From positions 1 through 64,000 of the IMG/VR virus record IMGVR_UViG_2806310985_000007: a stretch of DNA of 64,000 nt. One strand, 5' to 3'. The stretch is from a virus. Taxonomy: Duplodnaviria > Caudoviricetes. Numbering within the stretch: position 1 is the stretch's first letter; each line of letters opens with the position of its first letter. Under the pieces are notes generated by a model. That model did no database searches, had not been told where the DNA came from, and worked only from the letters and a program-made list of their open reading frames with translations. Of this stretch, positions 6,959 through 28,830 are shown piece after piece. The position numbers were made by a program, and so were the translations under genes.

Positions 6959-6963
6959 ATATA

Positions 6964-11055: not shown

Positions 11056-11064
11056 CGAGGTTCT

Positions 11065-11506: not shown

Positions 11507-11522
11507 AGCAGAATTCCTTTCT

Positions 11523-12834: not shown

Positions 12835-12840
12835 GTTTGA

Positions 12841-12930: not shown

Positions 12931-12944
12931 GATAAACGCTCCTT

Positions 12945-13511
12945 TCAATCATAGCTTGAAAAATAATGGCGGCATTCCTGGAACATCGGAACACCGTAAT
13001 TGCTGTATCCGCCTGCGGTGAAAAACACGCATTCGTAATTCGTCCGTTCCAGCAGCTCTTCCTTTACAAGCTCTACAAGTTCTTCTTTCACATAACAGCG
13101 GTCGACTCTCCCATTCCACATAGATGTGAACTGATTCGGCTGAAATATAACATCAGTTACATTATCCGGAAAGTGCGAATCGTCGACTCGGTTTAAAATC
13201 GTGTCAATTACCAGCCTCTGTCCGAGCTCCGTTTCACCTTCTGCTTCCGCCATTGTTACCAGCGCGATAAGTTCAATTTCTTCCTGCGAAATAGGGTACG
13301 GCCACTCTTCCTCAATCTGTTCCGGTTCCTCGGCAGGCGGCGAAGGTTCCGGCACGGTTTCAACAGGGGATATAGATACCGTCGAAGACTCATCGTTATA
13401 TGTATCCTCGACGGGTTTCTCTTTTACCGGGGCTGCGGCTATCCTCGCTATAATAATGAAGCAAAGGATAAGGCTCAGAAGAAACACCGCGCCCTTTAGT
13501 ATAGTTCGCAT
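12945..13511 (-). CDS. Cell wall hydrolase (SleB/Hydrolase_2-like) with signal anchor
   Basis: MAEAEGE...VIDTILNRV...FP..VTDVIFQPNQF motif. Confidence 0.85.
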   Translation of the reverse strand: MRTILKGAVFLLSLILCFIIIARIAAAPVKEKPVEDTYNDESSTVSISPVETVPEPSPPAEEPEQIEEEWPYPISQEEIELIALVTMAEAEGETELGQRLVIDTILNRVDDSHFPDNVTDVIFQPNQFTSMWNGRVDRCYVKEELVELVKEELLERTNYECVFFTAGGYSNYGVPMFQECRHYFSSYD

Positions 13512-13570
13512 TTTTTAAACTCCTCTCTTATAAAGCGACCACCTCCAGTATCGATCTGAAAGCGTTAAAG

Positions 13571-14491: not shown

Positions 14492-14744
14492 AGTTTTCAT
14501 TCTCCTTTTCGAGTTTTCTGAGATGGTCGATAAGATGCTGTGTATACCACATAATCTTTTCGAGGTCCTGAATGCCGTTTTTCTGTTTCCAACGGCAGGC
14601 ATATTTGATGATGTTGCCGGTATCGGTTGCTTCGATGCCTTTAAGGTCAAAAGTAAAAGCCTCTATTACATCAATAACTTCCAAACCGGTTTCAGATTGA
14701 TAATGTGCCGGATGTGACACCATTTTGTCAGGAGATTCGTACAT
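14481..14744 (-). CDS. DUF3310-like protein
   Basis: HPAHYQ...EVIDVI...GNIIKY..R..KNG..DL.K. Confidence 0.8.
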   Translation of the reverse strand: MYESPDKMVSHPAHYQSETGLEVIDVIEAFTFDLKGIEATDTGNIIKYACRWKQKNGIQDLEKIMWYTQHLIDHLRKLEKENENYEK

Positions 14745-14971
14745 TACTCTTCGTCCTCCTCACAGGTTTCACAGTAAGGGATATAGGTTCTCTTTCGTTC
14801 CTGAACCGCAATCTGACAGCCGCAGGAAGGGCAGTCAAAAGTGTCGTACAGTTTTTCCTAGGATTCCGAGCCAAAGGCTGCTGCTAACCCGCTTTTCCCG
14901 TTGTCACGGGAAATATAATGACGCTCCTCAATAGCGTTGAATTTGCATCCGCAGATTTTACACTCAAGCAT
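14744..14971 (-). pseudogene. Zn-finger protein interrupted by one in-frame TAG (codon 38)
   Basis: MLECKICG...GSES*EKLYDTFDCPSCGCQ...; stop at 14858-14860 and frame continues to a second CxxC. Confidence 0.7.
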
Positions 14972-14984
14972 ATTTTTTCTCCTT

Positions 14985-15584
14985 TCAGTTCAATGGGATA
15001 GCTCTTGGAAGTTTCAAAATATAACCGTCCCGAACCCTTACAGCAGTTGCTCCGGCAATATTTGTCCAGCCGTAACGATTCATTGTGTAGTTGTCGTTCG
15101 CAACATTAGCCAAATCATAAAAATCCGACACGCTTACCATACCGTACTGGCTGATAATATCATTCATGGAATCCAGCACTGCTTCCGCATCCCCGCGAGT
15201 GTCGAACAAAATATCATCGTAGTCAAAACTTGTCCGTCTGATAGCGGAGCCGGCGCGGGTGCGTTCGCTTTCCCGTTCGTAATAATTCCGATACGATACC
15301 TTGGATGCTGAACCGTTTTTCCTTGTTCTTCCTGCCTCACCGTAAAGAATCATATCGATTCCGGTAGTAACGATATCAGAAATAGCCTTTTTGATTGCCG
15401 GCACAATGACTTCCAGCAAAATATAAGACTTTACATTGTTGGCGTCCTCGGCAATGAAAACATCGGCGAATTTCTGCATTTCACCCTTTTTCCGGGTTTT
15501 CGCTTTTCCGCTTATGACTGCCTCCACTTTTTTCTCAGACTGCTCTTGACGAGACTTATCTGAATTGGTTTTGTATTCCTCCAC
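14985..15584 (-). CDS. Phage protein sharing the DUF6353-like C-terminal motif
   Basis: YGMVSVSDFYDL...YGW resembles YVTLNEFY.LG...GW in the paralogs. Confidence 0.75.
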   Translation of the reverse strand: MEEYKTNSDKSRQEQSEKKVEAVISGKAKTRKKGEMQKFADVFIAEDANNVKSYILLEVIVPAIKKAISDIVTTGIDMILYGEAGRTRKNGSASKVSYRNYYERESERTRAGSAIRRTSFDYDDILFDTRGDAEAVLDSMNDIISQYGMVSVSDFYDLANVANDNYTMNRYGWTNIAGATAVRVRDGYILKLPRAIPLN

Positions 15585-15600
15585 TTAGGTTTCTCCTTTC

Positions 15601-15789
15601 TTAAGCCGGGATCAATTTGCCAGGCAGAGTGATTTTGGTATTCGGCGTCATGCCATTCTCTTTTTTATACCGATAAGCAAGATTGCTCTTGGCTTTCGCT
15701 TCCGACGGGGCGTAGGTGGACGCTTTCCAGCGATTTTGTACGCAGTTTTCAAACCGCATGACTGGTCCGTCGTAGTAATACGCTTTCAT
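15601..15789 (-). CDS. Phage hypothetical protein
   Basis: GGAGG RBS; MKAYYYDGPV...WKASTYAPSEAKA. Confidence 0.75.
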   Translation of the reverse strand: MKAYYYDGPVMRFENCVQNRWKASTYAPSEAKAKSNLAYRYKKENGMTPNTKITLPGKLIPA

Positions 15790-15810
15790 TCTCGTACCCT
15801 CCTTTTTGGT

Positions 15811-15854
15811 AAAAAGAAAAAAGGGAAAGCACATTGTTTAAGGCACTCTCCCTT
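15811..15854 (-). terminator. Intrinsic terminator closing cassette
   Basis: AAGGGAGAGTGC...GCTTTCCCTT followed by TTTTCTTTTT. Confidence 0.7.
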
Positions 15855-15878
15855 GTCCGAATTTCACAGATTCAAATT

Positions 15879-16133
15879 TCAGTTTTCTTCTGTAGAAACG
15901 TCTGCTTCGTCAACAATGATTGTCTTCTCCTCAGCAGCCATCTTTTTCAGCTCGATCTGGGTTTTGATATTCGCAATCACCGGTTTTGCTACGTATTTAT
16001 AGACCACAAAGCCTACAATTACGCTCAAACCAATGCCTGCTGCAATCTTGATACCCTTGCTCATACCTGTGTTTTCAATGACTTCCTCGGTAGTTTCGAT
16101 AACCTCGTTGTTCATAATCGCATTATTTTCCAT
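15879..16133 (-). CDS. Cassette ORF: small single-TM protein
   Basis: AAAGGAG RBS; acidic N-terminus, TM helix, charged tail. Confidence 0.75.
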   Translation of the reverse strand: MENNAIMNNEVIETTEEVIENTGMSKGIKIAAGIGLSVIVGFVVYKYVAKPVIANIKTQIELKKMAAEEKTIIVDEADVSTEEN

Positions 16134-16175
16134 TTTATGTTCTCCTTTCAAATTCTGAAAATGTGGAACTTCTTC

Positions 16176-16200
16176 CATTAAAGCAATTGTAATTTTCGCG
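16176..16200 (-). promoter_or_regulatory. 25-bp cassette-head motif, copy 1
   Basis: CGCGAAAATTACAATTGCTTTAATG. Confidence 0.75.
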
Positions 16201-16220
16201 CGGTTTTCTCAGTGATGTTG

Positions 16221-16988
16221 TTATCGGGAGTGATAATCGTAAACCGGCGCAACCCGATAATCAATAACCAGGCAAGGGGTGCCGTTCGCGTCAAGATGGG
16301 AACTAAAATCAAGTTCGATATATCCCTTTTCGATGCTCCAACCCAGATCGTCTCCCAATTTCGTCCCGTCTAATCCGAGCGCATAGTAAAACTCGTTGAG
16401 CGTTACATACATGTCATCCCGCATTTGCCAGTTCAATTCATTTACGGCTCGGTTGATGGTATCTCTGTCCGACTTAAAATATCTTCCCGAGATAGCGTCA
16501 TAACAGATGGTATTTCCGCCTTTTTCAGTCAGAATCACTTCCCGAACAGGATTCTTCACGATTTTTTCTTTCGCCATCGACTCCCGTATCGTCTGCTCCT
16601 TCTTATCGCCAATCGCCTCTACGACCTTTTCCTGATATTCTCTTAAAGTTGATTCAGAAAGTGTGTAAGCGGTTGCAAGCGCTGCGTTCCGACGCAGATT
16701 TGTCGAGCTGGCGCCAATAAGACAGAAAATGGAAACCGAGCCAACGATTGCGGCCGGAATATAACAAGGCCATGCTGTCTTTACGATTTCCTTTCCGCTT
16801 AACTGGTCTGTTTCAAGTTCGTCTTTTTTCTCCTCGATAAGAATCAGTGCTTTTGGCGTTGCCCTCACCGCCATGACTGTAGTTGTAATCATTCCAGCAA
16901 TGCCGATACCTGTAAGTATCTCTGGACTATGCTTTTTCATCGCCGTCCGTACACTCTTGGCAATGCTGGATAAACTGTATTTTCCCAT
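16221..16988 (-). CDS. DUF6353-like phage protein, paralog 2
   Basis: KKHSPEILTGIG...AVRATPKA...CYDAISGRYF...LNEFY. Confidence 0.8.
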   Translation of the reverse strand: MGKYSLSSIAKSVRTAMKKHSPEILTGIGIAGMITTTVMAVRATPKALILIEEKKDELETDQLSGKEIVKTAWPCYIPAAIVGSVSIFCLIGASSTNLRRNAALATAYTLSESTLREYQEKVVEAIGDKKEQTIRESMAKEKIVKNPVREVILTEKGGNTICYDAISGRYFKSDRDTINRAVNELNWQMRDDMYVTLNEFYYALGLDGTKLGDDLGWSIEKGYIELDFSSHLDANGTPCLVIDYRVAPVYDYHSR

Positions 16989-17003
16989 TTGAGTTCTCCT
17001 TTC

Positions 17004-17183
17004 TTATTCAGAAACTAAGTCATCTAAAAGTTTATCGACTCTGCTTTTTATTTCGTTTTTGCATTCATCAGACTGAAGATATTTCTCCATCGATTTTAAG
17101 ATGCATTTTTTAGAGACAACAAATCCGCCGGCTAATCCTGCAAATACTCCAATACCGAAAACAACACACAACTTACTCTTCAT
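17004..17183 (-). CDS. Small membrane protein
   Basis: Starts inside the 19-bp RBS repeat; hydrophobic N-terminus. Confidence 0.65.
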   Translation of the reverse strand: MKSKLCVVFGIGVFAGLAGGFVVSKKCILKSMEKYLQSDECKNEIKSRVDKLLDDLVSE

Positions 17184-17199
17184 GTTTTTCTCCTTTCGT

Positions 17200-17496
17200 T
17201 TAAACAAATAACAAAATCAATTCTTCGGCTGTTTCAACCGCTGTCTGAAATATCAAACTGCGATGCTCGTCCTCGCCGTAACAAGCATACATAGCCATTT
17301 CGCAGATAAAACTTTCGATAATACAGATAGGCATTTCAAAGGGCTTATCCATAATTCGATTGATGATTTCATAAGCGGCCCATTGTGAATACGAACGTTT
17401 TTCAAATTCGTTTTTAGGCCACGAAAATGATGGACTAAATAAATATCGATCTACATATTCCTTGATAATCGAAACAGCCGTCTCCGAATCGCACAC
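17200..17496 (-). CDS. Phage hypothetical protein (SYSQWA family, copy B)
   Basis: FEKRSYSQWAAYEI, paralog of 19067-19387. Confidence 0.75.
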   Translation of the reverse strand: MCDSETAVSIIKEYVDRYLFSPSFSWPKNEFEKRSYSQWAAYEIINRIMDKPFEMPICIIESFICEMAMYACYGEDEHRSLIFQTAVETAEELILLFV

Positions 17497-17510
17497 GATG
17501 CCTCACCGGG

Positions 17511-17541
17511 TAAAGAAAAAAGAGCCCCTGTTAGGACTCTT
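17511..17541 (-). terminator. Terminator with CTAACA loop
   Basis: AGAGTCC-TAACA-GGGGCTCT then TTTTTCTTT; the upstream ORF's stop codon lies in the loop. Confidence 0.7.
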
Positions 17542-17698
17542 CCTCTTCGTCATTAAGTGCGGCGAGCTTTTCGTTAATGCGTTCATCGATTTTCTCTTCC
17601 ATTTTCTTTTCGTTCACCCAGTCGGTTAGCAGTGTTGCACCCATACCTACTGCGGTGGCGACAAGACCAAGAATTTTTACCATTTTAGCGTTAATCAT
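17531..17698 (-). CDS. Cassette ORF: 55-aa single-TM protein (not in ORF track)
   Basis: GGAGG RBS; MINAKMVKILGLVATAVGMGATLLTDWVNEKKMEEKIDE...EEES*. Confidence 0.75.
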   Translation of the reverse strand: MINAKMVKILGLVATAVGMGATLLTDWVNEKKMEEKIDERINEKLAALNDEEEES

Positions 17699-17716
17699 AA
17701 AGCGCTACCTCCTTTT

Positions 17717-17741
17717 CATAATACGACTTGTAAATTTTGCG
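17717..17741 (-). promoter_or_regulatory. 25-bp cassette-head motif, copy 2
   Basis: CGCAAAATTTACAAGTCGTATTATG. Confidence 0.75.
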
Positions 17742-17744
17742 GAT

Positions 17745-18569
17745 TTAAAGATCTTCCATCCATTCAGCGGTCGGTTCGAAGACCATGTCAATGACGAAGA
17801 TTTCCATCCCGTCTTCCAGCGTTAATTTATGGTGGTTGAAATCAATCCAGTAAATATCACCATTGCAGGACGACCAGCCTACGGTTTCTCCCAATTCGGT
17901 TTTTTCAAGCCCAAGGAACTCATAGAAGTCGTTTAATAGAATTACACCTTGAAACATAAAATTACGGTTCAAATGGTATTCCGCCTCTATGACCTTGGCG
18001 ATGGTTGTCTCAAAATACCTCTGAGAAAAGCTGTCGTAGAAAGTACGAACTATCTCGGGTTCCATGCCTTCGCCAAAGTCGAGACTTGAATTGCTGATGA
18101 AACTTGGCGACGAAATATAAACGTCCTTACACTTTTCACTCACTATGGAATCCACAATCGCATTGTGCGCCTCTTCTCCGTAAAGCTCTTTCAGTTTATC
18201 CTTATATTCCTTATAGGACTGGTTGATAAGAGCGTAGGCGCTTGTCAGGGCAACCTGTTTTCTGCTATTAAGCGCGTTGGCTCCCATAATACAGGCTATC
18301 GTGGAAAGGCCAAAAGCAGCAGTTGGAATATAATATTTCCACGCTGACATAAACGCCTCTTTTCTGGTGTAGGCGTATGGATCTCCATCGTGATTTTTTC
18401 TGCTGTCCGCTTTGACAAGTTCTACAGCTTTTGGAGTAGCTTTAACAGCCATAACGACAGTTACGATTACTCCTACGGACGCTACGCACGATAAAGCAAC
18501 AGGAGAATACTTTTTCAAATATAGTCCCGACTTGTGCAGCGCCTTTTGAATAACAGGGGTTTTGTTCAT
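17745..18569 (-). CDS. DUF6353-like phage protein, paralog 3
   Basis: KKYSPVAL...AVKATPKA...FYDSFSQRYF...LNDFYEFLGL. Confidence 0.8.
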   Translation of the reverse strand: MNKTPVIQKALHKSGLYLKKYSPVALSCVASVGVIVTVVMAVKATPKAVELVKADSRKNHDGDPYAYTRKEAFMSAWKYYIPTAAFGLSTIACIMGANALNSRKQVALTSAYALINQSYKEYKDKLKELYGEEAHNAIVDSIVSEKCKDVYISSPSFISNSSLDFGEGMEPEIVRTFYDSFSQRYFETTIAKVIEAEYHLNRNFMFQGVILLNDFYEFLGLEKTELGETVGWSSCNGDIYWIDFNHHKLTLEDGMEIFVIDMVFEPTAEWMEDL

Positions 18570-18585
18570 GTTTTTCTCCTTTCTT

Positions 18586-19050
18586 TTAGATTGGTATAAT
18601 TGCTAACGGATTAAGAACGACGATAGAATCGCAATCCCATCCATACAAACCGAAATACATGTCATCAGCTTTTTGCTCACTATATTCGTCCCCATACCAA
18701 CAAAGCTCGACAGCGTCATAACCTTGTCTAACACATTCTTCAAAATCAATAACAGTATCCCAAAAACTCGATGTGCTGCTTTTAATGGTGGGAAGACAAC
18801 GCAAATCTTTCATATTATGGATAACGGCTACTTTTGCATTATCACACAGTAGAAATTTAAAAGAATTATGCTCATCGCAGTCTCTAAATTCCTCTTGTTC
18901 ACACCACGTTTTCCAACCAAAAGTCGAGTTTTGGCGAGAAGCCCAAAGACCTCCACGTGGTTTGCTCCAGTTAGCTTCGTTTCTTATCGGAAAGCCTTTT
19001 GAAGAATCAAAAACAGTAGAGCCATAATGAATGTAAACAATTCCTTTCAT
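18586..19050 (-). CDS. Hypothetical protein, possible ADP-ribosyltransferase-like fold
   Basis: YIHYG...KPRGGLWAS...GYDAVE...GWDCDS; the fold assignment is a guess. Confidence 0.7.
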   Translation of the reverse strand: MKGIVYIHYGSTVFDSSKGFPIRNEANWSKPRGGLWASRQNSTFGWKTWCEQEEFRDCDEHNSFKFLLCDNAKVAVIHNMKDLRCLPTIKSSTSSFWDTVIDFEECVRQGYDAVELCWYGDEYSEQKADDMYFGLYGWDCDSIVVLNPLAIIPI

Positions 19051-19066
19051 GTTTTTCTCCTTTCGT

Positions 19067-19387
19067 TCATCTCATAGCTCTCAGTAAATCCAGGATATCT
19101 ACAGCCATGTTGCCGGCCGATTTAAATATTTGGCTTGTTCTCGGATTTACTTTTGAATAAGCAAACATCTTCACCATGAATTTGTGGGCGAGTTCACAGA
19201 ATTCATCGATTGATCCCGATGTTCTCGGATATATTTTTTCGGCGATAAAATCTCTGAGCTCGTCGACAGCCCATTGTGAATAACTGCTTTTCTTGAATTC
19301 CTCTGTCCATTTTCCGAACAACGGAGGCATCCAAGCATCCATGTGATACATGTCGTACAAAATTAGTTCAAGGTGATCGATGCTCAT
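19067..19387 (-). CDS. Phage hypothetical protein (SYSQWA family, copy A)
   Basis: AAAGGAG RBS before MSIDHL; FKKSSYSQWAVDEL. Confidence 0.75.
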   Translation of the reverse strand: MSIDHLELILYDMYHMDAWMPPLFGKWTEEFKKSSYSQWAVDELRDFIAEKIYPRTSGSIDEFCELAHKFMVKMFAYSKVNPRTSQIFKSAGNMAVDILDLLRAMR

Positions 19388-19404
19388 TGTCTTCTCCTTT
19401 CGTG

Positions 19405-19491
19405 AAAAAATTGAAAGAGAAAGATGTAAGCCAAGCATAAACTTACTATTATGGCAACCTCAACTATCCTAATCAGTTACTCTCTTTCCCT
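19405..19491 (-). ncRNA. Candidate small RNA (ORF-less cassette)
   Basis: Directly after motif copy 3; 5' GAGGGAAAGA..GTAA pairs with 3' TTAC..TCTTTCTCTT, followed by a U-tract. Confidence 0.4.
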
Positions 19492-19516
19492 CATAATAAG
19501 CGTTGTAATTTTCGCG
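19492..19516 (-). promoter_or_regulatory. 25-bp cassette-head motif, copy 3
   Basis: CGCGAAAATTACAACGCTTATTATG. Confidence 0.75.
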
Positions 19517-19520
19517 CGGC

Positions 19521-19550
19521 AAAAGAAAAGAGCCGTTGCTAGCGGCCCTT
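19521..19550 (-). terminator. Terminator with CTAGCAA loop
   Basis: AAGGGCCG-CTAGCAA-CGGCTCTT then TTCTTTT. Confidence 0.75.
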
Positions 19551-19554
19551 CTCC

Positions 19555-19770
19555 TTACAAACCAATGCTCTTTAAAATTTTCATAAGTTCGTCTTTTTCG
19601 AGTTCAGCATCTACATCCAGATGGACATGTGTCTTTCCGTCGATAACCGTTGCGTTCACCTCATTAAGTTTGAGTTCTACATCATACCCAAACTTCTTTC
19701 GGATTAGCATAGCTATCAACTTCGACAGAATACCCGTCGTGAATTTCGACCCTATTTTCATTTCGTCCAT
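19555..19770 (-). CDS. Cassette ORF: 71-aa hypothetical protein
   Basis: AAGGAG RBS; MDEMKIGSKF...HVHLDVDAE. Confidence 0.75.
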   Translation of the reverse strand: MDEMKIGSKFTTGILSKLIAMLIRKKFGYDVELKLNEVNATVIDGKTHVHLDVDAELEKDELMKILKSIGL

Positions 19771-19805
19771 ACTCCTTTTACTCCCTTCAAATATCCATTG
19801 ATTTC

Positions 19806-19830
19806 CGTAAAAGAAGATGCGATTTTTGCG
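19806..19830 (-). promoter_or_regulatory. 25-bp cassette-head motif, copy 4
   Basis: CGCAAAAATCGCATCTTCTTTTACG. Confidence 0.7.
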
Positions 19831-19833
19831 AAC

Positions 19834-20193
19834 TTAAATCTCCCGTCTGTCAAAGACTGTTTCCCATCGCTCCCGTTTGATAGGTTTCATTTTCAGCGCC
19901 CACATAATTTGACGGACAGTAACGGTGGGGTAGAGGCCGTCCGTACAAGTTCCGGAACGGGCGTCAAAGTATTCCCGAAAATCGGGGTGCAAATATAAAG
20001 CGTCGGTAATCCATGGATCAACCTCGCTCCACCATGTACTCTTGGTTTCTTCATCAAACCTTTGCTGTATCACAGCCAGTCCTTTTTCACCAATTTTGTA
20101 TAGTGTACAACTGTTGTAAACGGGATGATCGCAAATATAACGGTTGCCGTACATAGACAGATAGATTTCCGGTTTATCAAAATGGTATCTCAT
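19834..20193 (-). CDS. Phage hypothetical protein
   Basis: MRYHFDKP...CDHPVY..CTLY...GLAVIQQRF. Confidence 0.75.
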   Translation of the reverse strand: MRYHFDKPEIYLSMYGNRYICDHPVYNSCTLYKIGEKGLAVIQQRFDEETKSTWWSEVDPWITDALYLHPDFREYFDARSGTCTDGLYPTVTVRQIMWALKMKPIKRERWETVFDRREI

Positions 20194-20202
20194 ATACACC
20201 AC

Positions 20203-20246
20203 CAAAAAGAAAAGAGAAAGAGCCCTCGTCAGGACCCTCTCCCTTT
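20203..20246 (-). terminator. Terminator with CTGACGA loop
   Basis: GAGAGGGTCC-TGACGA-GGGCTCTTTC then TCTTTTCTTTTT. Confidence 0.7.
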
Positions 20247-20261
20247 TGCTAATAATCTTAT

Positions 20262-20489
20262 TTAGTCTTCGTCAAATTCTCCGCAAACTTCTTCTCTGGT
20301 AGGATACAGAGCTTCATATTCCTCATCATCTTCCATTCCATACTGTTCCAATTCTACGGAATGGCCGCATTCGAGGCATACTAATATATCTTCCCATTCA
20401 TCCTCGAACTGCATTCTTGCTCCGCATTTACTGCAAATATACCTGCCAGTAAGTAATGCGTCCTTTTGCGCGTCGTTAAAAAAGCTCAT
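20262..20489 (-). CDS. Cassette ORF: acidic Zn-ribbon protein
   Basis: CSKCG...CLECG; GGAGG RBS. Confidence 0.8.
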   Translation of the reverse strand: MSFFNDAQKDALLTGRYICSKCGARMQFEDEWEDILVCLECGHSVELEQYGMEDDEEYEALYPTREEVCGEFDED

Positions 20490-20525
20490 TGCAAATTACC
20501 TCCTTGATACCGTGTGGCAATTCTA

Positions 20526-20553
20526 AGTATAACCGCCACCTTTGAATTATCAA
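20526..20553 (-). promoter_or_regulatory. Possible sigma-A promoter of the Zn-ribbon gene
   Basis: TTGATA-16-TATACT. Confidence 0.45.
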
Positions 20554-20579
20554 GAGATAAAAAGCACTTTTACATCTCT

Positions 20580-20604
20580 CATAATAGCAGATGCGATTTT
20601 AACG
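20580..20604 (-). promoter_or_regulatory. 25-bp cassette-head motif, copy 5
   Basis: CGTTAAAATCGCATCTGCTATTATG. Confidence 0.7.
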
Positions 20605-20658
20605 GAGAAAAACGAAGAGGCCGTGTAATATCCACGAACTCCTCGTTTCGGAATCATT

Positions 20659-21051
20659 TTACTTCTTGGTTGGTTTAAAACGGCTAAACAAACCTCTGAA
20701 TGTCGTAGAGGTATACGTTCCTTTCTCTTCGAACTTGAATCCCTTTCGCATCCAGAATGCGTAGAACATTAACGGCAGCACAAGCTCGGCGGCTGCAATA
20801 CCAATTTTGACATACCGATCTTTAACATTCTCTTCAATCTGAGCAACCTTAAAGCCCTTATCGCTTTCACGATTCTGAGTTTTATCCAGATACTCCATTG
20901 AAGTTTTGTCTTCGTCGAGCTTCACCTTGTAAAGTTTCGCTAAGCTTTCCACTGCTATAGAGTGTTTTTCACTTCCTGGATCGAGGGAGGCCAAGTTTTC
21001 GATTTCGTTCTTGATTTCCTCTTCCAACAATTTTTTAATTTCTTCGCCCAT
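20659..21051 (-). CDS. Cassette ORF: coiled-coil protein with C-terminal TM
   Basis: AAAGGAG RBS before MGEEIK; KGFKFEEKGT tail; hairpin at ~20605-20650 downstream. Confidence 0.75.
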   Translation of the reverse strand: MGEEIKKLLEEEIKNEIENLASLDPGSEKHSIAVESLAKLYKVKLDEDKTSMEYLDKTQNRESDKGFKVAQIEENVKDRYVKIGIAAAELVLPLMFYAFWMRKGFKFEEKGTYTSTTFRGLFSRFKPTKK

Positions 21052-21081
21052 TTTGCATTTCTCCTTTCGTTTACTGGGTTC

Positions 21082-21106
21082 CATAAAAGGAAGTGTTATT
21101 TGTGCG
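21082..21106 (-). promoter_or_regulatory. 25-bp cassette-head motif, copy 6 (overlaps upstream stop codon)
   Basis: CGCACAAATAACACTTCCTTTTATG. Confidence 0.7.
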
Positions 21107-21314
21107 GAATGAAGTCTTTAGCCCTGACTCTCAGCAAGACATACTTCTTTGAAATTACTGCTTCAACCCGCTTTGATAGTTCCAAAAATAAAAAAGGACC
21201 ATCCGGATCTGAATTGTCAACTCGAAGTGTTCCGACTGAGAAAAGCCGAAATACGATACCCGTAAAAATGGCACCTACCAAAACGCCGAGAACAAAGATG
21301 ATTACCAAGTTCAT
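21096..21314 (-). CDS. Small membrane protein
   Basis: GGAGG RBS; TM helix then GTLRVD.SDPDGPFLFLEL. Confidence 0.75.
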   Translation of the reverse strand: MNLVIIFVLGVLVGAIFTGIVFRLFSVGTLRVDNSDPDGPFLFLELSKRVEAVISKKYVLLRVRAKDFIPHK

Positions 21315-21423
21315 GCGCATCCTCCTTTTAAAATGTTTTTTCGAATTTTCAACCCGGGGAATTTTTCAGATATCAATTTAACATGTTTTTCCGTCACCTG
21401 CGTACTGAATTTTAATCTAGGAT

Positions 21424-21451
21424 AAAAAGAAAGAGCCGTTGTTAGCGGCTC
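21424..21451 (-). terminator. Terminator with CTAACAA loop
   Basis: GAGCCG-CTAACAA-CGGCTC then TTTCTTTTT. Confidence 0.75.
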
Positions 21452-21460
21452 AGTCTTTTG

Positions 21461-21745
21461 TTAGGACTTGTGTAATATGTCGATGTAAATTCTTTCTCCG
21501 AGTTTCTTGTCATAGATAATAGATATTTCGAGTTCTCCATCTCGTTCCCATATCCAGTAAGTATTATCATTATATGGATTCCATTTTAAGCCGAACAGCT
21601 CATATATCTTATTCAGATAAATGTAGCCATAAGCCCTGTAACAATCCATGATGTATATTACCTTGGATTTAGTAAAAAGTTTGTTAAACTCAAAATCCTT
21701 TTCCCATGACGAACTGCTTTTGTCAAATGTAATTTTAATGTGCAT
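21461..21745 (-). CDS. Cassette ORF: stand-alone DUF6353-like C-terminal domain; separated from its motif by IS110
   Basis: FDKSSSSWEKD..FN.LF...GYIYLNKIYE.FGL resembles FDSKSRNYE...YN.MF...GHLFLNEVL.L.L in paralog 1. Confidence 0.7.
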   Translation of the reverse strand: MHIKITFDKSSSSWEKDFEFNKLFTKSKVIYIMDCYRAYGYIYLNKIYELFGLKWNPYNDNTYWIWERDGELEISIIYDKKLGERIYIDILHKS

Positions 21746-21771
21746 ATTTTTACACTCCTATTACAATAAAT

Positions 21772-21990
21772 TTGGACAGGAAAGCCGGACAGCCAGTCCG
21801 GCTTTCCCTCCATCTCGTGCCTAAGCTACAATGAGAGGAGCAACTGGCTGACCAATCACTCCTTGGGCTTGTATGTCCGTGTGAAAGACTGTTAGCCATC
21901 CTCTCGTTGCAGCGTTCGATTTAAGCAGGTTGAACCACCGGATGTCGGAGAGTTCGTGTCACACAATAGATTGAATCGGCAGCGAGAAAA
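21772..21990 (+). ncRNA. IS110 bridge RNA (5' hairpin, target-binding loop, donor-binding loop)
   Basis: Hairpin ~21779-21808; target guides CACTCCT 21857-63 and TGTGAAAG 21880-87; donor guides AGCAGGT 21924-30 and AATAG 21965-69; ends approximate. Confidence 0.8.
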
Positions 21991-22032
21991 GATGGATTCC
22001 GGTTGCAGATTCTTTGTATTGGAGGAATGTGA

Positions 22033-23241
22033 ATGAACTGCGTTGGCATCGATGTTTCCAAGGGTAAGAGCATGATTGCAGTCATGCGGCCCTTCGGAGA
22101 GGTAGTGGTTTCACCCTTTGAAGTACGTCACACCGCCAATGAACTGAGCGAGCTGGCAGGACTGCTCAAAAGCCTGGACGGCGAGACCCGTGTGGTGATG
22201 GAATCCACGGGTAATTACCATGCTCCGGTGGCCTGGCTGCTCCACGACGCGGGCCTTTATGTCTCGGTAGTCAATGCAATGCTGGTGCATGACTACGGAA
22301 ACAACAGTTTAAGACGGGCCAAAACCGACAAAAAGGATGCCGTAAAGCTGGCCAACTACGGTCTTGACCACTGGCTCACATTGCCGAGATATATCCCGGA
22401 GGAGGATACCCGACTCATGCTGAAAATCTGCTACCGGCAGTACCAACAGTATTCCAAAGTTCAGACCATGCTGAAGAATAACCTGATCTCCCTGCTGGAC
22501 ACCACCTTCCCAGACGCAAATCGCTTGTTTACCAGTCCGCCCCGCGCCGATGGCAGCGAGAAGTGGGTGGACTTTGTCGCTACTTTTTGGCATTGCGAGT
22601 GCGTTTGTGGCCGGTCTGAGAAGGCCTTTACTACCCAATACCAGAAGTGGTGCAGAAAGCACGGCTACAATTTCAGCGAGGATAAGGCGCTGGATATTTA
22701 TGCCTCTGCTTGCAGACACTTCGGTGTCATACCGAAAACGGATACGGCAAAACTTTTGGTAGAACAGGCCATTTCTCAACTCCAGACAACTTCTTCCGCG
22801 TTAGCTGCTCTCAAACAGGAGATGCAATCCCTGGCAGCTTCTCTGCCGGAGTATCCTGTAGTGATGGGGATGTTTGGTGTTGGCCCAACCCTCGGCCCTC
22901 AACTCCTGGCTGAAATTGGCGATGTACGCCGTTTTCATTCCAAAAAAGCGTTGGTTGCCTTTGCGGGTATTGACGCCCCGCCCTACCAATCCGGTCAAAT
23001 AGATGTCCGTAGCCGTAGCATTTCCAAGCGAGGATCTGCCTCACTGCGCAGGACGCTCTTTCTGGTGATGAGCGTCATCCTGCAATGTGCTCCAATAGAC
23101 GAGCCGGTGTACCAGTTCATGGACAAGAAACGCTCTGAAGGCAAGCCATATCGTGTCTACATGATGGCCTCTGCCAACAAGTTCCTGCGCATCTACTACG
23201 CTTCTGTGAAAGCCTACTTGGAATCCCTGGAGCACGACTGA
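22033..23241 (+). CDS. IS110-family DEDD recombinase/transposase
   Basis: GIDVSK, MESTG, KTDKKDA (DEDD) and YQSG in the C-terminal domain; GGAGG RBS. Confidence 0.95.
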   Translation: MNCVGIDVSKGKSMIAVMRPFGEVVVSPFEVRHTANELSELAGLLKSLDGETRVVMESTGNYHAPVAWLLHDAGLYVSVVNAMLVHDYGNNSLRRAKTDKKDAVKLANYGLDHWLTLPRYIPEEDTRLMLKICYRQYQQYSKVQTMLKNNLISLLDTTFPDANRLFTSPPRADGSEKWVDFVATFWHCECVCGRSEKAFTTQYQKWCRKHGYNFSEDKALDIYASACRHFGVIPKTDTAKLLVEQAISQLQTTSSALAALKQEMQSLAASLPEYPVVMGMFGVGPTLGPQLLAEIGDVRRFHSKKALVAFAGIDAPPYQSGQIDVRSRSISKRGSASLRRTLFLVMSVILQCAPIDEPVYQFMDKKRSEGKPYRVYMMASANKFLRIYYASVKAYLESLEHD

Positions 23242-23372
23242 TTTTTACACTCTATACCATCTGGCTGGCCGCCGTTTTAATTTTGAGATGCTCAGCGGCT
23301 TGATTTTGTATTGCATTTTTTCGCCTCCCTAAAAATCTGAAATTTCTACTTGACTTTTATTAGCAGGTCTTT

Positions 23373-23397
23373 CATAAAGGAGCTTGTTATTCTTGCG
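23373..23397 (-). promoter_or_regulatory. 25-bp cassette-head motif, copy 7
   Basis: CGCAAGAATAACAAGCTCCTTTATG, 2 bp from the IS110 right core. Confidence 0.7.
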
Positions 23398-23590
23398 AAC
23401 TCTCATAAACGATTTTCTTCCGCAAATCCGACCACGAAATATAACGGTCTTTGCGACACACTGGACAATAAAACTTATTGACCTTGCCTCCAATGTCTAT
23501 AATCTCATTGCTATCCGCTTCCAGTCTGCTCTGACAATTCGGGCAGTTGAAGCGATAGACCTTCTTAACAGCCACGTCTACAATCTTCAC
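23387..23590 (-). CDS. Small Zn-ribbon protein
   Basis: CPNC...CPVC. Confidence 0.75.
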   Translation of the reverse strand: MKIVDVAVKKVYRFNCPNCQSRLEADSNEIIDIGGKVNKFYCPVCRKDRYISWSDLRKKIVYESSQE

Positions 23591-23594
23591 GCCA

Positions 23595-24014
23595 TCACCC
23601 TCTTTCTTGGCTGAGCAGCCAGAAGAACCGTCTGTACAAGCTGTAATAAGTATCCTTGCAGCATGGGATGGAAAATTTAATCCTCATGTAATCATAGGAA
23701 ACTTCTTCCGTCACACCTTTCAAAATATAACAGGAAAGTTCCTCGTCTGTTTCTTTGGCCATTCGCTCGATCATGTCCATTCGATTCGAGTAAAATAACC
23801 TTGCCATCGCACATTTAGCAATCGGATCGCTGACATTATTTGTCCTGCTCGGCGGTATCAATTTGGGCCAACTACTCGGAAACCCATCCAGCATGGCATA
23901 CGATTTTCTCCATATCGGATACTGTAGACAGAAATGCTTTAGCTCGTAATAGCGATGTTTTTCAATCCAGTATTGGTTCTTCTCGGATATTTCCGGTCTT
24001 ATCGTTGTGCTCAT
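23595..24014 (-). CDS. RinA/ArpU-like phage transcriptional regulator
   Basis: YYELKHFCLQY..W; C-terminal HTH-like VSYDY...YY..YRRFFWLL. Confidence 0.65.
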   Translation of the reverse strand: MSTTIRPEISEKNQYWIEKHRYYELKHFCLQYPIWRKSYAMLDGFPSSWPKLIPPSRTNNVSDPIAKCAMARLFYSNRMDMIERMAKETDEELSCYILKGVTEEVSYDYMRIKFSIPCCKDTYYSLYRRFFWLLSQERG

Positions 24015-24262
24015 ACCCGTTCACCTCGCCAGACATAACCTGTTTCCTGCCACAGTAACTTTGGAGAGATGTAAAAGTTGATTCGTCCATACCTCGAATT
24101 CATCTCTTCCAGATTGGTGATAAGTTTTCCGTTCCTGGTTGCTTTACCGATGGGTAGCCATCCCGATATAATGCCGGCTCGAATCCATGAAGCGTCTTTC
24201 CCATAAACTCTCGCTGCTACGGCTACCGGTACTGAGCCAGATGCAAATATAACTTCATCCAT
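24011..24262 (-). CDS. Excisionase/HTH-like DNA-binding protein
   Basis: VPVAVAARVYGKDASWIRAG...FYISPK; near the integrase. Confidence 0.6.
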   Translation of the reverse strand: MDEVIFASGSVPVAVAARVYGKDASWIRAGIISGWLPIGKATRNGKLITNLEEMNSRYGRINFYISPKLLWQETGYVWRGERV

Positions 24263-24285
24263 TGGCTTTTGCCTCCTTTCAACTG

Positions 24286-24624
24286 CTATTCTAGGTTAGA
24301 AACAGCTTTTAGTGAAAACAACTCAGGTGGAGACAGCCGCCATCGAATCATTGTCATTTCGCAAGGATAATCTTCAAAACCAAGCATTTCGCAAGTAATA
24401 AGTCCTTCCAAAACACCGATGATGATTTCCGCTTCATATTGTTTGTATGGAAATATAAAGTCCGGAAGTTCCCGATGCATAGCGCTGCATTTTTGGCATC
24501 GGAATCTTCGAATATCCACTTTGTTTTTGACGCCGTATTTTGTCCGTACGATTCTTTTCACGCTGTCGTAATATTTCAACTGTCCGCCGCACTTGGGGCA
24601 GGTTGATTTGCTGTCATTAATCAT
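24286..24624 (-). CDS. Zn-ribbon protein (DUF6431-like)
   Basis: CPKCG...RFRCQKC..HRELPDFIFPYKQY. Confidence 0.7.
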   Translation of the reverse strand: MINDSKSTCPKCGGQLKYYDSVKRIVRTKYGVKNKVDIRRFRCQKCSAMHRELPDFIFPYKQYEAEIIIGVLEGLITCEMLGFEDYPCEMTMIRWRLSPPELFSLKAVSNLE

Positions 24625-24665
24625 GTCTCATCTTTTCCTCCGATCACAGCAAGAAAAGTTGTATG

Positions 24666-24701
24666 TAGGAGTTGACAATTCCTATACTTATGATATATGA
24701 T
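24666..24701 (+). promoter_or_regulatory. Integrase promoter with overlapping inverted repeat
   Basis: TTGACA (24672)-18-TATGAT; TAGGAGTTG-A-CAATTCCTA dyad spans the -35. Confidence 0.6.
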
Positions 24702-24734
24702 TACTAATAGCAAATCAATGGAAAGGTGGTCTCT

Positions 24735-25976
24735 ATGCTTATAAAATGTCCGGAGTGCGAATTGCAAGTAAGTGACAAAGCTGTTTCCTGTCCGCATTGC
24801 GGATATCCGATGCAGCCAAGCGCCAAATCAAGAAAACCTCGAAATAAAAACAACAAACGGCGTCGTTTACCAAACGGATTCGGACAGATCAGCGAGATTA
24901 AAAATCGTAATCTTCGCAATCCTTTTAGGGCGATGGTGAGCGTAGGAAAATCAGAAAACGGACGGCCAATATGCAAACCTCTGAAGCCGGAATCCTATTT
25001 TCCTACCTACAATGACGCCTATGCCGCTCTCGTGGAATATAACAAGAACCCATATGATCTTGAGCCGTCTATCACTGTCAAAGAATTGTACGAACGATGG
25101 AAACCGGAATACTTGAAAACTCTGAAAAACGAAGCGAGCGGCAGAGCTGTGGAATCGGCTTGGGGGTATTGTTCATCCGTATACGGCATGAGAGTAATTG
25201 ATGTCAGGGCACGTCATATAAAAGGCTGCATGGAAGAAGGAGTATCTGTAGTACGGGGAAAAGAGCAAACCCCAAGTGCGTCAATGAAGAACAAGATTAA
25301 ATCTCTGTTTAACTTAATGCTTGATTACGCTTTGGAGTATGAATTGGTAGACCGCAACTACTCGAGAACGTTTAATCTAACCGAGGAAACCATCAAAGAA
25401 ATTGTAACGGTAAAGAAAGAACATATACCGTTCACACAAGAAGAGATGGAATTGCTCTGGCAGCATGTAGATGATAAAATGTATGTGGACGTTATCCTGA
25501 TTCAGTGCTATTCCGGATGGAGACCACAGGAAATTGGTTTGCTGGAATTGAAAGATGTGGATCTTGAAAATGGTACATTTAGCGGAGGAATGAAAACAGA
25601 TGCAGGTATCAATCGTGTCGTTCCTATCCATTCAAAAATAAGGCACTTGGTAGAACGGCACTATAAAGAGGCTCAGAACATGGGAAGCATATACCTGTTT
25701 AATTACGCCAATCCAAGCAGCAGGATTAAGAATACGGTCTTGACCTACAATAGATATCAAAAAGCATTTGGGATGATTCGGGATGAACTGAAACTCAATC
25801 CGGAGCATAGACCCCATGACGGGCGCAAGCACTTTGTCACCATGGCTAAAAAATATGGCGTTGATGAATACGCCATCAAGTATATGGTTGGGCATAAGAT
25901 TTCTGATATAACCGAAAAGGTTTATACGCAGAGAGAATTTGAATGGTTGAAGGACGAAATAGAAAAAATAAAATAG
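24735..25976 (+). CDS. Tyrosine integrase with N-terminal Zn-ribbon
   Basis: CPEC/CPHC; SGWRPQE, GMKT, HDGR, VGH...VY catalytic residues. Confidence 0.93.
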   Translation: MLIKCPECELQVSDKAVSCPHCGYPMQPSAKSRKPRNKNNKRRRLPNGFGQISEIKNRNLRNPFRAMVSVGKSENGRPICKPLKPESYFPTYNDAYAALVEYNKNPYDLEPSITVKELYERWKPEYLKTLKNEASGRAVESAWGYCSSVYGMRVIDVRARHIKGCMEEGVSVVRGKEQTPSASMKNKIKSLFNLMLDYALEYELVDRNYSRTFNLTEETIKEIVTVKKEHIPFTQEEMELLWQHVDDKMYVDVILIQCYSGWRPQEIGLLELKDVDLENGTFSGGMKTDAGINRVVPIHSKIRHLVERHYKEAQNMGSIYLFNYANPSSRIKNTVLTYNRYQKAFGMIRDELKLNPEHRPHDGRKHFVTMAKKYGVDEYAIKYMVGHKISDITEKVYTQREFEWLKDEIEKIK

Positions 25977-25991
25977 CTTGTAATTTTTGCC
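25967..25991 (-). promoter_or_regulatory. Degenerate motif copy 8, pointing antisense into the integrase 3' end
   Basis: GGCAAAAATTACAAGCTATTTTATT keeps the AAAWT-RCA-N5-TWTWAT spacing. Confidence 0.55.
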
Positions 25992-27258: not shown

Positions 27259-28830
27259 TTATGCTTTAATTTCCTGCCCGTCCTTAAAAGCAAACCGCAC
27301 ATCGTCCCTGGCATAGACTGTTACATAATCAATCAGCCCGCACCAGAGGGCAGGGTCAAATTTCTCCATCGGGTCAGCCTGCGCCAGCGTGTCCAGAAAG
27401 GCGTCGATTGCCGCCCGTCTGGATTTCTTGTCGGCAAGCGCGGCTTCAATTTCCTCCAGCCGAGCCTTCGCGGTATCGAAACGGGTGGTGAGACCGTCAT
27501 AGCGTTTCTGATATTCCGTTTGGTCGAGCGCCACATGAGCGTTTTCGTAGATGCATTTTTCGATAAGGTCTGAGACGACCATGATCTCATCCTGCAGTTC
27601 TGCGACTTCGGTTTCCAGTGCAGATGTGTCGAAAGCAACGTCCAGCGAATTTCGGAGCGGCGAGATAATCGCCGCTTTTTTGCCAATCAGCTTGTTTGCC
27701 GCTGAGACAAACATCGCTTTAATTTCATCCTCCGTCAAGTGCGGCGTGGAGCATTTTTCCTCGCCGTCATACTTATGATTGCACTGCCAGATAACCCGGC
27801 GGTATTTGCTGTTGGAATGCCAGACCTTCGAGCCGTACCACTCGCCGCATTGTCCGCAGCGTATCTTACCGGAGAAAAGATGGACGCCGCTGTGTCGCCC
27901 ACGGCTGCTTTTTCTACGCTCCAGTTCCTGCTGAACCAGCTCAAACACCTCCGGCTGGATGATGGCTTCGTGGTTGCCCTCCACATAGTACTGCGGAATC
28001 TCTCCCTCGTTGACCTTTTTCTTTTTGGTGAGGAAATCCACCGTGTAGCTCTTTTGAAGAAGCGCATCGCCTTTGTATTTCTCATTGGTGAGGATGCTGC
28101 GAACAGCTCCTGCGTTCCATTTATCCTTGCCGCCCGGCGATTTAATGCCGTCAGCGGTTAGCCTGGCGGCAATGCCGTGCGGCGTCATGCCTTGCAGGAA
28201 CATACTGTAAATGCGGCGGATGATAACCGCTTCGTCCTTGTTCAAAACCAGATTGCCGTCAGGACCCCGGTCGTAGCCGAGAAACCGTTTGAATGGCACG
28301 GTGACCTTCCCGTCAGCAAACCGTTTTCTCTGTCCCCATGTACAGTTCTCGGAAATGCTGCGGCTTTCCTCCTGTGCCAGTGAGGACATGATGGTAATAA
28401 GTAGTTCTCCCTTGCTGTCCAGGGTCCAGATGTTTTCTTTTTCAAAATAGATCTCCACGCCTTTTTCCTTGAGCTGGCGCACCGTGGTCAGACTATCTAC
28501 CGTATTGCGGGCGAATCGGCTGACCGATTTGGTGACGATGAGGTCTATCTTGCCAGCCAGTGCATCCGCCACCATGCGTTTGAATCCCTCGCGGTGCTTG
28601 GTATTCGTACCCGTTATGCCCTCGTCCGTATACACGGAAACAAACTCCCAATCGTCCCGGCTTTTGATATAGTTGGTGTAATAGTCCACCTGGGCGCTGT
28701 AGCTGGTGAGCTGCTCCTCGCTGTCCGTGGAAACACGGGCGTAGGCGGCGGTGCGGCGCTTTTTCTTTTCATTGATCGGCGTTGCCGTGAATCGGCTTAT
28801 CGTCGCCGGTATTGTCGTTACTTTCGCCAC
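27259..28830 (-). CDS. Large serine recombinase 1
   Basis: YARVST, SVSRFARN, recombinase domain, CGQCG Zn-ribbon, coiled coil. Confidence 0.95.
   Translation of the reverse strand: MAKVTTIPATISRFTATPINEKKKRRTAAYARVSTDSEEQLTSYSAQVDYYTNYIKSRDDWEFVSVYTDEGITGTNTKHREGFKRMVADALAGKIDLIVTKSVSRFARNTVDSLTTVRQLKEKGVEIYFEKENIWTLDSKGELLITIMSSLAQEESRSISENCTWGQRKRFADGKVTVPFKRFLGYDRGPDGNLVLNKDEAVIIRRIYSMFLQGMTPHGIAARLTADGIKSPGGKDKWNAGAVRSILTNEKYKGDALLQKSYTVDFLTKKKKVNEGEIPQYYVEGNHEAIIQPEVFELVQQELERRKSSRGRHSGVHLFSGKIRCGQCGEWYGSKVWHSNSKYRRVIWQCNHKYDGEEKCSTPHLTEDEIKAMFVSAANKLIGKKAAIISPLRNSLDVAFDTSALETEVAELQDEIMVVSDLIEKCIYENAHVALDQTEYQKRYDGLTTRFDTAKARLEEIEAALADKKSRRAAIDAFLDTLAQADPMEKFDPALWCGLIDYVTVYARDDVRFAFKDGQEIKA

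Follow-up and report, generated by a model that had tools for sequence, protein, structure and literature searches.

A strand-specific 28-bp repeat of a gut prophage as a candidate promoter class for a phage-encoded two-barrel RNA polymerase

The window analysed here is a 64,000-nt stretch of DNA from IMG/VR record IMGVR_UViG_2806310985_000007, a single 73.8-kb contig that starts at window position 1. The prophage in this window is an approximately 60-kb temperate siphophage of gut Oscillospiraceae, related to the Faecalibacterium phage FP_oengus. In the initial annotation, a repeated 25-bp motif heading small gene units of this prophage was proposed to be either a phage-specific promoter class or a recombination boundary. 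We found that the motif is real and highly non-random, and that a promoter specific to the phage is its most likely identity. On balance we lean, by a little, towards the view that it is a promoter class read by the phage's own RNA polymerase. The proposal of a phage-specific class gained support from strand-exclusive conservation in hundreds of relatives and in several other phage lineages; promoter activity, the start point and the identity of the reading polymerase are what we infer.

The repeated element in the window

The element spans 28 bp and, with the consensus refined using relatives, reads CGCRAAAWTTACA-N5-TWTTATG-RAA. An upstream T-rich run is followed by CGC, an A-rich stretch, TTACA, five positions under loose constraint (mostly C at the fifth), the block T-W-T-T-A-T-G and finally R-A-A. 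Seven strong copies and a weak one were found between 16173 and 25991, on the minus strand throughout and nowhere else in the 73.8-kb contig:

16173–16200, minus: motif copy 1, 34.6 bits; heads an 84-aa membrane open reading frame (ORF), 16133–15879
17714–17741, minus: motif copy 2, 36.9 bits; 3 nt past the stop of a DUF6353 gene; heads a 55-aa membrane ORF, 17698–17531
19489–19516, minus: motif copy 3, 32.7 bits; just past a terminator; heads a leader of ~105 nt and three genes
19803–19830, minus: motif copy 4, 31.3 bits; just past the stop of a 119-aa ORF; heads a 71-aa ORF, 19770–19555
20577–20604, minus: motif copy 5, 26.9 bits; 5 nt past a terminator hairpin; heads a 91-nt structured leader
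21079–21106, minus: motif copy 6, 33.0 bits; overlaps the stop of a 74-aa membrane ORF; heads a 130-aa ORF, 21051–20659
23370–23397, minus: motif copy 7, 34.2 bits; overlaps the stop of a Zn-ribbon gene; IS110-family element directly 3'
25964–25991, minus: weak eighth copy, 18.2 bits (seven-copy matrix) or 11.3 bits (second scan); antisense to the integrase gene, at its 3' end

The IUPAC string first written for the motif matched exactly at three places (16176, 17717 and 19492), and none of 100 shuffled sequences contained any match. With up to three mismatches it matched eight times, on the minus strand only and at the places originally listed for seven copies and a degenerate eighth, against a shuffle mean of 0.40 and a maximum of 3. 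The description of seven ungapped copies holds in that these form a clear family, but four of the strong copies depart from the written consensus by one or two letters and the element is 28, not 25, bp long: conservation reaches three bases further, to R-A-A at positions 26–28, which were left out of the weight matrix and are conserved nonetheless. That matrix, built from the seven strong copies, scored them at 28.8–32.0 bits and the eighth copy at 18.2 bits, the next best site across the contig reaching 12.6 bits; a scan of window positions 1–16000 found no copy (best score 5.3 bits). The eighth copy is without the first C and the final G, recurs in close relatives only and is a doubtful member of the family. 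If active, it would yield an antisense integrase RNA.

Upstream of motif position 1 the sole conservation was T-richness, over 7 bases, which fits terminator tails; the initial observation that no canonical −35 element is present was thus confirmed. Position 20 would be the −11 A of a sigma-70-type promoter; among 206 distinct cores it is occupied by T in 51% and by A in 42%, and only three of the seven window copies have A there. A sigma-70/sigma-A −10 hexamer, which needs A at −11 and T at −7, was not found in the gut-phage lineage, nor was a −35 hexamer 16–18 bp before the −10, the TTACA block standing 5 bp from the hexamer. The three conserved blocks lie ~10 bp apart and are separated by unconserved spacer, as expected for a protein bound to one face of duplex DNA. 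The motif logo revealed no internal symmetry, inverted-repeat structure or internal pairing.

Conservation with a polymerase-like protein across phage lineages

Related loci were collected from IMG/VR by means of g3, a protein encoded beside the array:

23595–24014, minus: g3, 139 aa, PHROG 11237, sigma-region-4-like C-terminal domain; directly upstream of the array

The search found 325 relatives, and the best 80 loci (1.17 Mb) were kept. The motif was present in all 80, at 4–11 copies each, with 654 matches on the gene strand and a single match on the other. Five relatives are complete (58–63 kb), and each contained 9–11 forward matches (50 in all), with no reverse match and none for a reversed-pattern control. 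Their copies follow a common layout, with seven or eight within ~8 kb after g3 and two others ~21 and 25 kb beyond. Conservation is highest in the last copy, which stands ~940 bp before a gene of ~910 aa that is homologous to gp55 of FP_oengus. In its strict form, the 28-mer was found in at least 110 stretches of IMG/VR.

FP_oengus itself, an isolated Faecalibacterium phage whose g3 is 41% identical, contains 14 copies on the gene strand only: twelve at 2286–8273, one at 22540 and one at 27684. The first directly follows g3, and the copy at 27684 lies 82 bp before the endonuclease, exonuclease and gp55 genes. No motif copy accompanies the structural and lysis genes of FP_oengus. Among the gut phages 9–295 nt (median 35) separate the motif from the start codon, and in 84 of 424 distinct sites a Shine–Dalgarno (SD)-like sequence starts 0–4 nt past position 25. 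In some relatives, locus L031 (1402–1703) among them, a strong copy lies within the 3' end of the gene for a DUF6431 Zn-ribbon protein.

All five complete relatives encode a gp55 homologue (51–53% identical), and the PHROG 4291 profile matches gp55 over its full length. The family is annotated as 'RNA-dependent RNA polymerase' (RdRP); the Pfam RdRP match is weak, the C-terminus gives clear helix-turn-helix (HTH) and sigma-70 region 4 Pfam matches, and HTH domains are found at both the N- and the C-terminus. The accessible text of a preprint likewise reports an HHpred match to RdRP, a DxDGD motif and HTH domains at both ends, and assigns FP_oengus to a supercluster that also takes in Lactococcus 1706-like phages and several actinophage clusters (10.1101/842583). 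A library search yielded 2578 cluster representatives at 50% identity, and a 36-sequence alignment was built. The polymerase-like protein, which contains the motif ADFDGD, was modelled with AlphaFold (pLDDT 83.2), and the model gave 25 Foldseek matches at E ≤ 0.001, every one listed in that range being a two-barrel polymerase, either an RNA polymerase or an RdRP. The best were QDE-1 (E 5e-8), Thermus phage P74 gp62, P32 gp64, plant RDR2 and P23-45 gp96, and further matches included the virion polymerase of crAss-like phages and cellular beta-prime subunits. Judged by this model, the ~900-aa protein has a two-barrel RNA-polymerase fold. BLASTP of gp55 against YonO found no significant similarity outside the DxDGD region, and searches of PDB sequences with polymerase-family profiles returned HTH domains only, plus a sub-threshold match to P23-45 gp96. 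A second, tape-measure-fused polymerase was not present.

By tblastn, polymerase homologues of ~50% identity were found in 250 phage records, of which four were examined, one per host genus. Arthrobacter phage Cheesy contains 8 motif copies on the plus strand, one of them ~100 bp before its endonuclease, exonuclease and polymerase genes; Lactococcus phage 1706 contains 11 on the plus and none on the minus strand, Gordonia phage Conley 11 on the gene strand and none on the other, and Streptomyces phage Scarif 13, again with none on the other strand. The element occupies the same places and the same orientation as in the gut phages. These lineages retain CGC (CAC in 1706), the TTACA block and the 5-bp spacer, followed by a T/A block of TATAAT or TATAGT and then purine-rich GAGA or AGAA. 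In 1706 the SD sequence nearly adjoins the hexamer in most copies, and in Conley and Scarif conservation extends into the leader and SD. No integrase is annotated in any of the four records.

Genome announcements of the cluster DJ Gordonia phages Vardy and Conley describe, in their accessible text, a 43–50-bp intergenic repeat in 5 copies, read as containing a sigma-70 −10 sequence (PMC9671010, PMC10868162). This is the same element: the Conley copies have CGC...TTACA, TATAAT and the conserved leader, and lie in a central region of small genes rich in membrane proteins and terminators. The window version differs in its degenerate T/A block (TWTTATG) and has no conserved leader. The accessible text of the announcements connects the repeat neither with the polymerase-like gene nor with phages infecting other hosts.

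Motif and polymerase co-occurred in the five complete relatives, FP_oengus, Cheesy, 1706, Conley and Scarif, and both the motif and this polymerase family were missing from an Evtepia phage, from SPbeta and from 72 loci of SPbeta-YonO type. The motif was absent at ≥8 bits from the 40 kb of the Evtepia phage and at ≥14 bits from the 72 loci (812 kb), and was also absent from SPbeta. A g3 profile that reached E 1.5e-41 in FP_oengus gave no match in Cheesy (best E 1.8) or 1706 (best E 0.032); since the motif is present in Cheesy and 1706 without g3, it travels with the polymerase and not with g3. For the YonO loci, coding bias dominated a k-mer contrast. In SPbeta, CATTTATGARGG occurs just twice in 72 kb, both times in the yonN–yonK spacer on the late-gene strand, at a distance of 157 bp (~10445 and ~10602 of locus L086; SPBc2 60445 and 60602). 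Late-operon transcription by YonO is reported to begin in this spacer, according to the accessible part of the source (PMC5467207).

The promoter reading and its alternatives

Under the reading that we favour, each copy would start a short unit, usually of one small gene, often for a membrane protein, ending at its own terminator. The reader would be the phage's single-chain two-barrel RNA polymerase of the FP_oengus gp55 family, not the host sigma-A holoenzyme. CGC...TTACA would be recognized by its fused HTH domains and the T/A-rich block would melt, with RNA synthesis beginning at or beside the conserved G/A of motif positions 25–26. The RinA-like, Xis-like and Zn-ribbon proteins suggested as binders in the initial annotation fared poorly, as they are not conserved with the motif, whereas the polymerase-like protein is. 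A wider proposal, which we advance tentatively and rate a shade below an even chance, is that the motif is the cognate promoter of a large family of single-chain two-barrel polymerases with built-in HTH recognition, the pair forming a self-sufficient, sigma-independent system that has changed little between phages of Actinobacteria and of Firmicutes and that drives swappable single-gene cassettes and possibly, by way of the motif copy before the polymerase gene, its own positive feedback.

The position of the SD sequences bears on the choice of polymerase. A sigma-70-type start ~7 nt past the hexamer would remove the SD sequence in 84 of the 424 sites, which speaks against sigma-70 use, and a start at the conserved G/A would presumably keep those leaders.

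Several points weigh against reading by the phage polymerase. The SD argument is weakened in that the genes could also be translated from read-through transcripts. The polymerase gene is itself preceded by a motif copy, so the first polymerase needs another source, and read-through or a host-type promoter has to be assumed. Synteny with the relatives implies that the contig stops just short of the polymerase gene, and its presence in the window prophage, beyond the contig end, is thus projected from relatives. For each outside lineage, co-occurrence was seen in one genome or a few. In Cheesy, Conley and most Scarif copies the T/A block reads exactly TATAAT, the −10 feature of sigma-70 promoters, and the announcements of Vardy and Conley read the TATAAT repeat in that way (PMC9671010, PMC10868162, accessible text). 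A sigma-4-like protein, g3, is encoded directly before the first copy. Out of 14 sequencing runs given by a run search, contigs of three RNA runs match the window only at 21753–23374, an insertion sequence (IS); a further run, probably DNA, contains a relative.

Some of these observations would be explained if the host sigma-A RNA polymerase read the motif together with a phage factor replacing −35 recognition at CGC...TTACA (about −30 to −18). Such a factor would be sigma-like or an activator, comparable to what operates at T4 middle promoters or to activators of the Ltr/RinA type, and g3 would fill this role in the gut-phage lineage. We regard this as unlikely, albeit worth serious attention. 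It accounts for the TATAAT copies and would solve the initial expression of the polymerase gene, and the first FP_oengus copy directly after g3 suits it. In L031, as in some other relatives, g3 follows a terminator and what reads as its own sigma-70-like promoter. The protein is mostly helical, and its C-terminal 70 residues superpose on sigma region 4 domains, against CnrH with Z 5.6 (rmsd 2.2 Å over 64 residues) and against SigE region 4 with Z 4.8; such domains make up ~18 of its 50 top rows at Z 4.4–5.6, all below 6, a range in which a common helical arrangement is possible. Its language-model neighbours include the DUF722 and DUF1492 families (0.92–0.93), and DUF1492 is the LtrB family of late activators in the accessible text of PMC3753634. 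Pfam, NCBIfam and PDB sequence profiles, however, assign g3 to no family, Foldseek against the PDB gave no match at E ≤ 0.001, and g3 is undetectable in the motif-bearing Cheesy and 1706. The −11 A is missing in half of the sites of the lineage, and a hexamer shifted by three is without the −7 T; the SD sequences 0–4 nt past the hexamer, and those of most 1706 copies, also count against a host start. We consider that g3 could well act as a regulator particular to this lineage, in its temperate members.

The remaining explanations appear far less probable. Stoperator-like operators, at which a repressor would block a passing polymerase and the motif itself would be no promoter, would suit the strictly single orientation, intergenic position and many copies per genome, and a prophage needs lysogeny control. 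No classical repressor was recognized among the prophage proteins by Pfam or PHROG annotation. We judge this explanation improbable: the motif is not confined to temperate phages with a cognate repressor, occurring equally in Cheesy, 1706, Conley and Scarif, for which no integrase is annotated, its copies stand after terminators and not inside operons, and a TATAAT-like block is joined to a conserved purine-rich stretch at fixed distance. A site acting in RNA, for processing, antitermination or translation control of transcripts from further upstream, would place the motif close before ribosome-binding sites, as in a fifth of cases, and would suit the conservation reaching into the leader and SD of Conley and Scarif. 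It is very improbable given the variable start-codon distance, the block spacing suited to a protein on a duplex DNA face, and the lack of internal pairing and of any Rfam match; most copies also lie just past terminators, so little upstream RNA would reach them.

Recombination at the motif, as a boundary for exchange or excision of single-gene cassettes, was the other proposal of the initial annotation, and it is the one that we hold least probable. Cassette content does vary between relatives, as then anticipated, in a mosaic in which 200-bp segments between copies are present in 5 to 78 of the 80 loci, and one shared breakpoint falls exactly at copy 4 (68 alignment ends at 19831). However, of the 110 distinct breakpoint clusters no more than 8 are 40 bp or less from a motif centre, where ~5.4 would be expected, and the surplus of raw ends (124 of 949; expectation 46.9) is mostly due to that single inherited breakpoint. 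Features of an integron-like cassette site, namely an inverted-repeat site, a dedicated integrase and breakpoints at the site, were not found; the motif has no inverted-repeat structure and the nearby recombinases are an ordinary phage integrase and an unrelated IS. The motif is also held at fixed places, before the polymerase operon, across large evolutionary distances.

Units, prophage setting and relation to known systems

The units were described initially as single ORFs or RNA-like units closed by their own terminators. This is partly right: a hairpin with T-run closes six of seven, and five of seven contain just one small ORF. Three genes follow copy 3, and an IS severs copy 7 from its gene. 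Hydropathy predicts one membrane helix in several of the unit ORFs. The genes and hairpins of the units not given above are:

15821–15854, minus: hairpin with T-run, copy 1 unit; −16 kcal/mol, z −2.5
17517–17536, minus: weak hairpin with T-run, copy 2 unit; −10.5 kcal/mol, z −1.2
19387–19067, 19050–18586 and 18569–17745 (DUF6353), minus: copy 3 genes of 106, 154 and 274 aa
19522–19556, minus: terminator-like hairpin, copy 4 unit; −18.3 kcal/mol, z −3.2; sub-threshold Rfam match only
20210–20247, minus: terminator-like hairpin, copy 5 unit; 17 pairs
20489–20262, minus: copy 5 gene, 75-aa Zn-ribbon ORF
20609–20649, minus: terminator-like hairpin, copy 6 unit; −20.9 kcal/mol, z −4.4
21433–21451, minus: terminator-like hairpin with T-run, copy 7 unit, after ORF 21745–21461

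The copy 3 unit leads directly into copy 2, where the SD sequence begins 4 nt past motif position 25. Motif-free genes lie between the units (74 aa, 119 aa, a trio of 98, 59 and 255 aa, and all genes below 15800), which makes the initial picture of cassettes set among other genes a fair one. A search of the motif region against Rfam gave one sub-threshold match, on a terminator, and nothing on the motif. The 91-nt leader after copy 5 (20490–20580, minus) has a predicted fold of −25.4 kcal/mol (z −3.4) that pairs the SD sequence of the Zn-ribbon gene and may act in translational control; the fold of the 105-nt leader after copy 3 is unremarkable (z −1.0).

The first ~26 kb of the window have a G+C content of 39–48%, against 52–58% beyond 28 kb, and their genes lie nearly all on the minus strand. 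After the integrase, the minus-strand order is a DUF6431 Zn-ribbon protein, a PHROG 6058 protein, g3 and a 67-aa Zn-ribbon protein. Small ORFs, along with three DUF6353 paralogues, fill the next ~8 kb; a cell-wall hydrolase comes after them, then a 1363-aa primase-polymerase. A helicase-like protein further on has a sub-threshold Pfam Helicase_C match only, and a 250-aa ORF without Pfam match occupies the place of the annotated ThyX in FP_oengus. The array region is therefore the non-structural half of the phage, not a late region. The full DUF6353 paralogues are at 13571–14500, 16221–16988 and 17745–18569, and a 94-aa ORF (21461–21745) matches the C-terminal part only; FP_oengus likewise has three paralogues. 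Further features of the window and of the outside lineages (record coordinates) are:

24726–25976, plus: tyrosine integrase; prophage end
21758–23368 (ends uncertain by a few bases), plus: IS110-family element; separates copy 7 from gene 21745–21461
~51620–52080 of phage 1706, ~50330–50640 of Scarif and ~54455–54790 of Cheesy: iteron-like repeats

The IS110-family element encodes a DEDD transposase (22033–23241), preceded by a non-coding stretch of ~280 nt. The insertion point follows the last bases of copy 7 and precedes the SD sequence of the downstream gene, with the junction ...TGAAAG / IS / GAGTG.... Identical flanking letters occur in RNA-library contigs from two other contexts, and the copy in the Evtepia phage reads GAAAG / IS / AAGGCG, which suggests that the element targets SD-like sequences site-specifically. 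In a megablast search against named phages the IS was the only match, and distant blastn gave four weak records. A large serine recombinase with Resolvase, Recombinase and Zn-ribbon domains (27259–28830, minus) lies just outside the prophage, where G+C rises, and is probably the edge of a second mobile element.

The surroundings of the polymerase gene in the outside lineages have features of their own. In 1706, Scarif and Cheesy the iteron-like repeats, dense, direct and inverted, lie upstream of the endonuclease, exonuclease and polymerase genes; they are lineage-specific and may form an origin or regulatory region. Some 300–400 bp past the polymerase gene, all lineages (loci L159–L163, L082, L165, L167 and L168) contain a G-run/C-run element with CATCGC...GGTC and AAAATTTCCCCGG-like parts. 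It coincides with the linear record ends in Cheesy, 1706 and Conley and is probably the cos or terminus region, which would make the polymerase gene the last on virion DNA.

The known system that we compare first is that of Thermus phage P23-45, which according to the accessible text of PMC10770324 has two two-barrel polymerases (virion gp96 and non-virion gp64), each with its own repeated promoter motif. The likeness extends to a siphophage with a QDE-1/YonO-type polymerase, a motif that occurs 7–14 times upstream of mapped starts in the non-structural region, and its restriction to relatives carrying the polymerase (PMC10770324, same text). The model of the window-phage polymerase also matches the solved structures of P74 gp62 and P32 gp64. 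The two differ in motif sequence and in that starts were mapped in P23-45 and are predicted here; the polymerase here is HTH-fused at both ends, has no tape-measure-fused partner and belongs to temperate phages.

Promoters of the T7 type are contiguous blocks of ~25–40 bp, present in many copies in one orientation, with a T/A-rich stretch before a purine start. The element resembles them as a conserved, one-orientation block in many copies that probably runs up to and past the start, and we take the Scarif and Conley versions to resemble the T7 class III promoter around the start site. The polymerase folds are unrelated, two-barrel here and Pol I-like in T7, so the resemblance is probably convergent.

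Late activators of the Ltr superfamily (RinA, ArpU and LtrA–C) act at repeat sites upstream of terS, which are short tandem direct repeats at one promoter in the accessible text of PMC3753634. Here, too, a small sigma-4-like protein is encoded directly upstream of the first phage-specific cis element, and one copy precedes the endonuclease gene ahead of the late region. The element differs as a single 28-bp unit with 9–14 copies per genome, dispersed over 7–26 kb and none directly before a terminase gene; tandem repeats after the activator gene and upstream of terS were not found. In addition, g3 matches no Ltr family model and is absent from other motif-bearing lineages.

Lambdoid morons are promoter–gene–terminator units between core genes; they rely on ordinary promoters of the host type and, as a rule, are expressed from the prophage. 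The units described here resemble them in combining a promoter-like element, a small gene and a terminator, in lying among conserved genes and in varying between relatives. They differ in that all share one phage-specific element, which also precedes the polymerase operon.

To speak of an undescribed system, as was done initially, is therefore too strong: this is a promoter-type element of a familiar kind, polymerase-specific phage promoters are already known from P23-45, T7 and others, and the repeat was reported earlier in Vardy and Conley. In the literature searched on FP_oengus, Faecalibacterium phages, phage 1706 and YonO-like or two-barrel promoters, supplements lying outside the search, we found no description of the motif, and the word 'promoter' is absent from the preprint text (10.1101/842583). 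Within that literature, the gut-phage version of the motif, its cross-phylum conservation and the link to the polymerase are new.

If reading by the phage polymerase is correct, one short consensus would annotate the units of gut Oscillospiraceae phages, Lactococcus 1706-like dairy phages and many Arthrobacter, Gordonia and Streptomyces phages, and would provide the first candidate promoter for a polymerase family that is otherwise uncharacterized. Self-sufficient promoter recognition by YonO was left open in 2017 (PMC5467207, accessible part), and the element makes it testable whether a YonO/QDE-1-like enzyme recognizes promoters alone through fused HTH domains. A compact polymerase–promoter pair from Gram-positive hosts of differing G+C content could serve as an orthogonal expression tool. 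For the phages themselves, a shared promoter would imply that the small membrane and Zn-ribbon genes are co-regulated as a variable accessory set.

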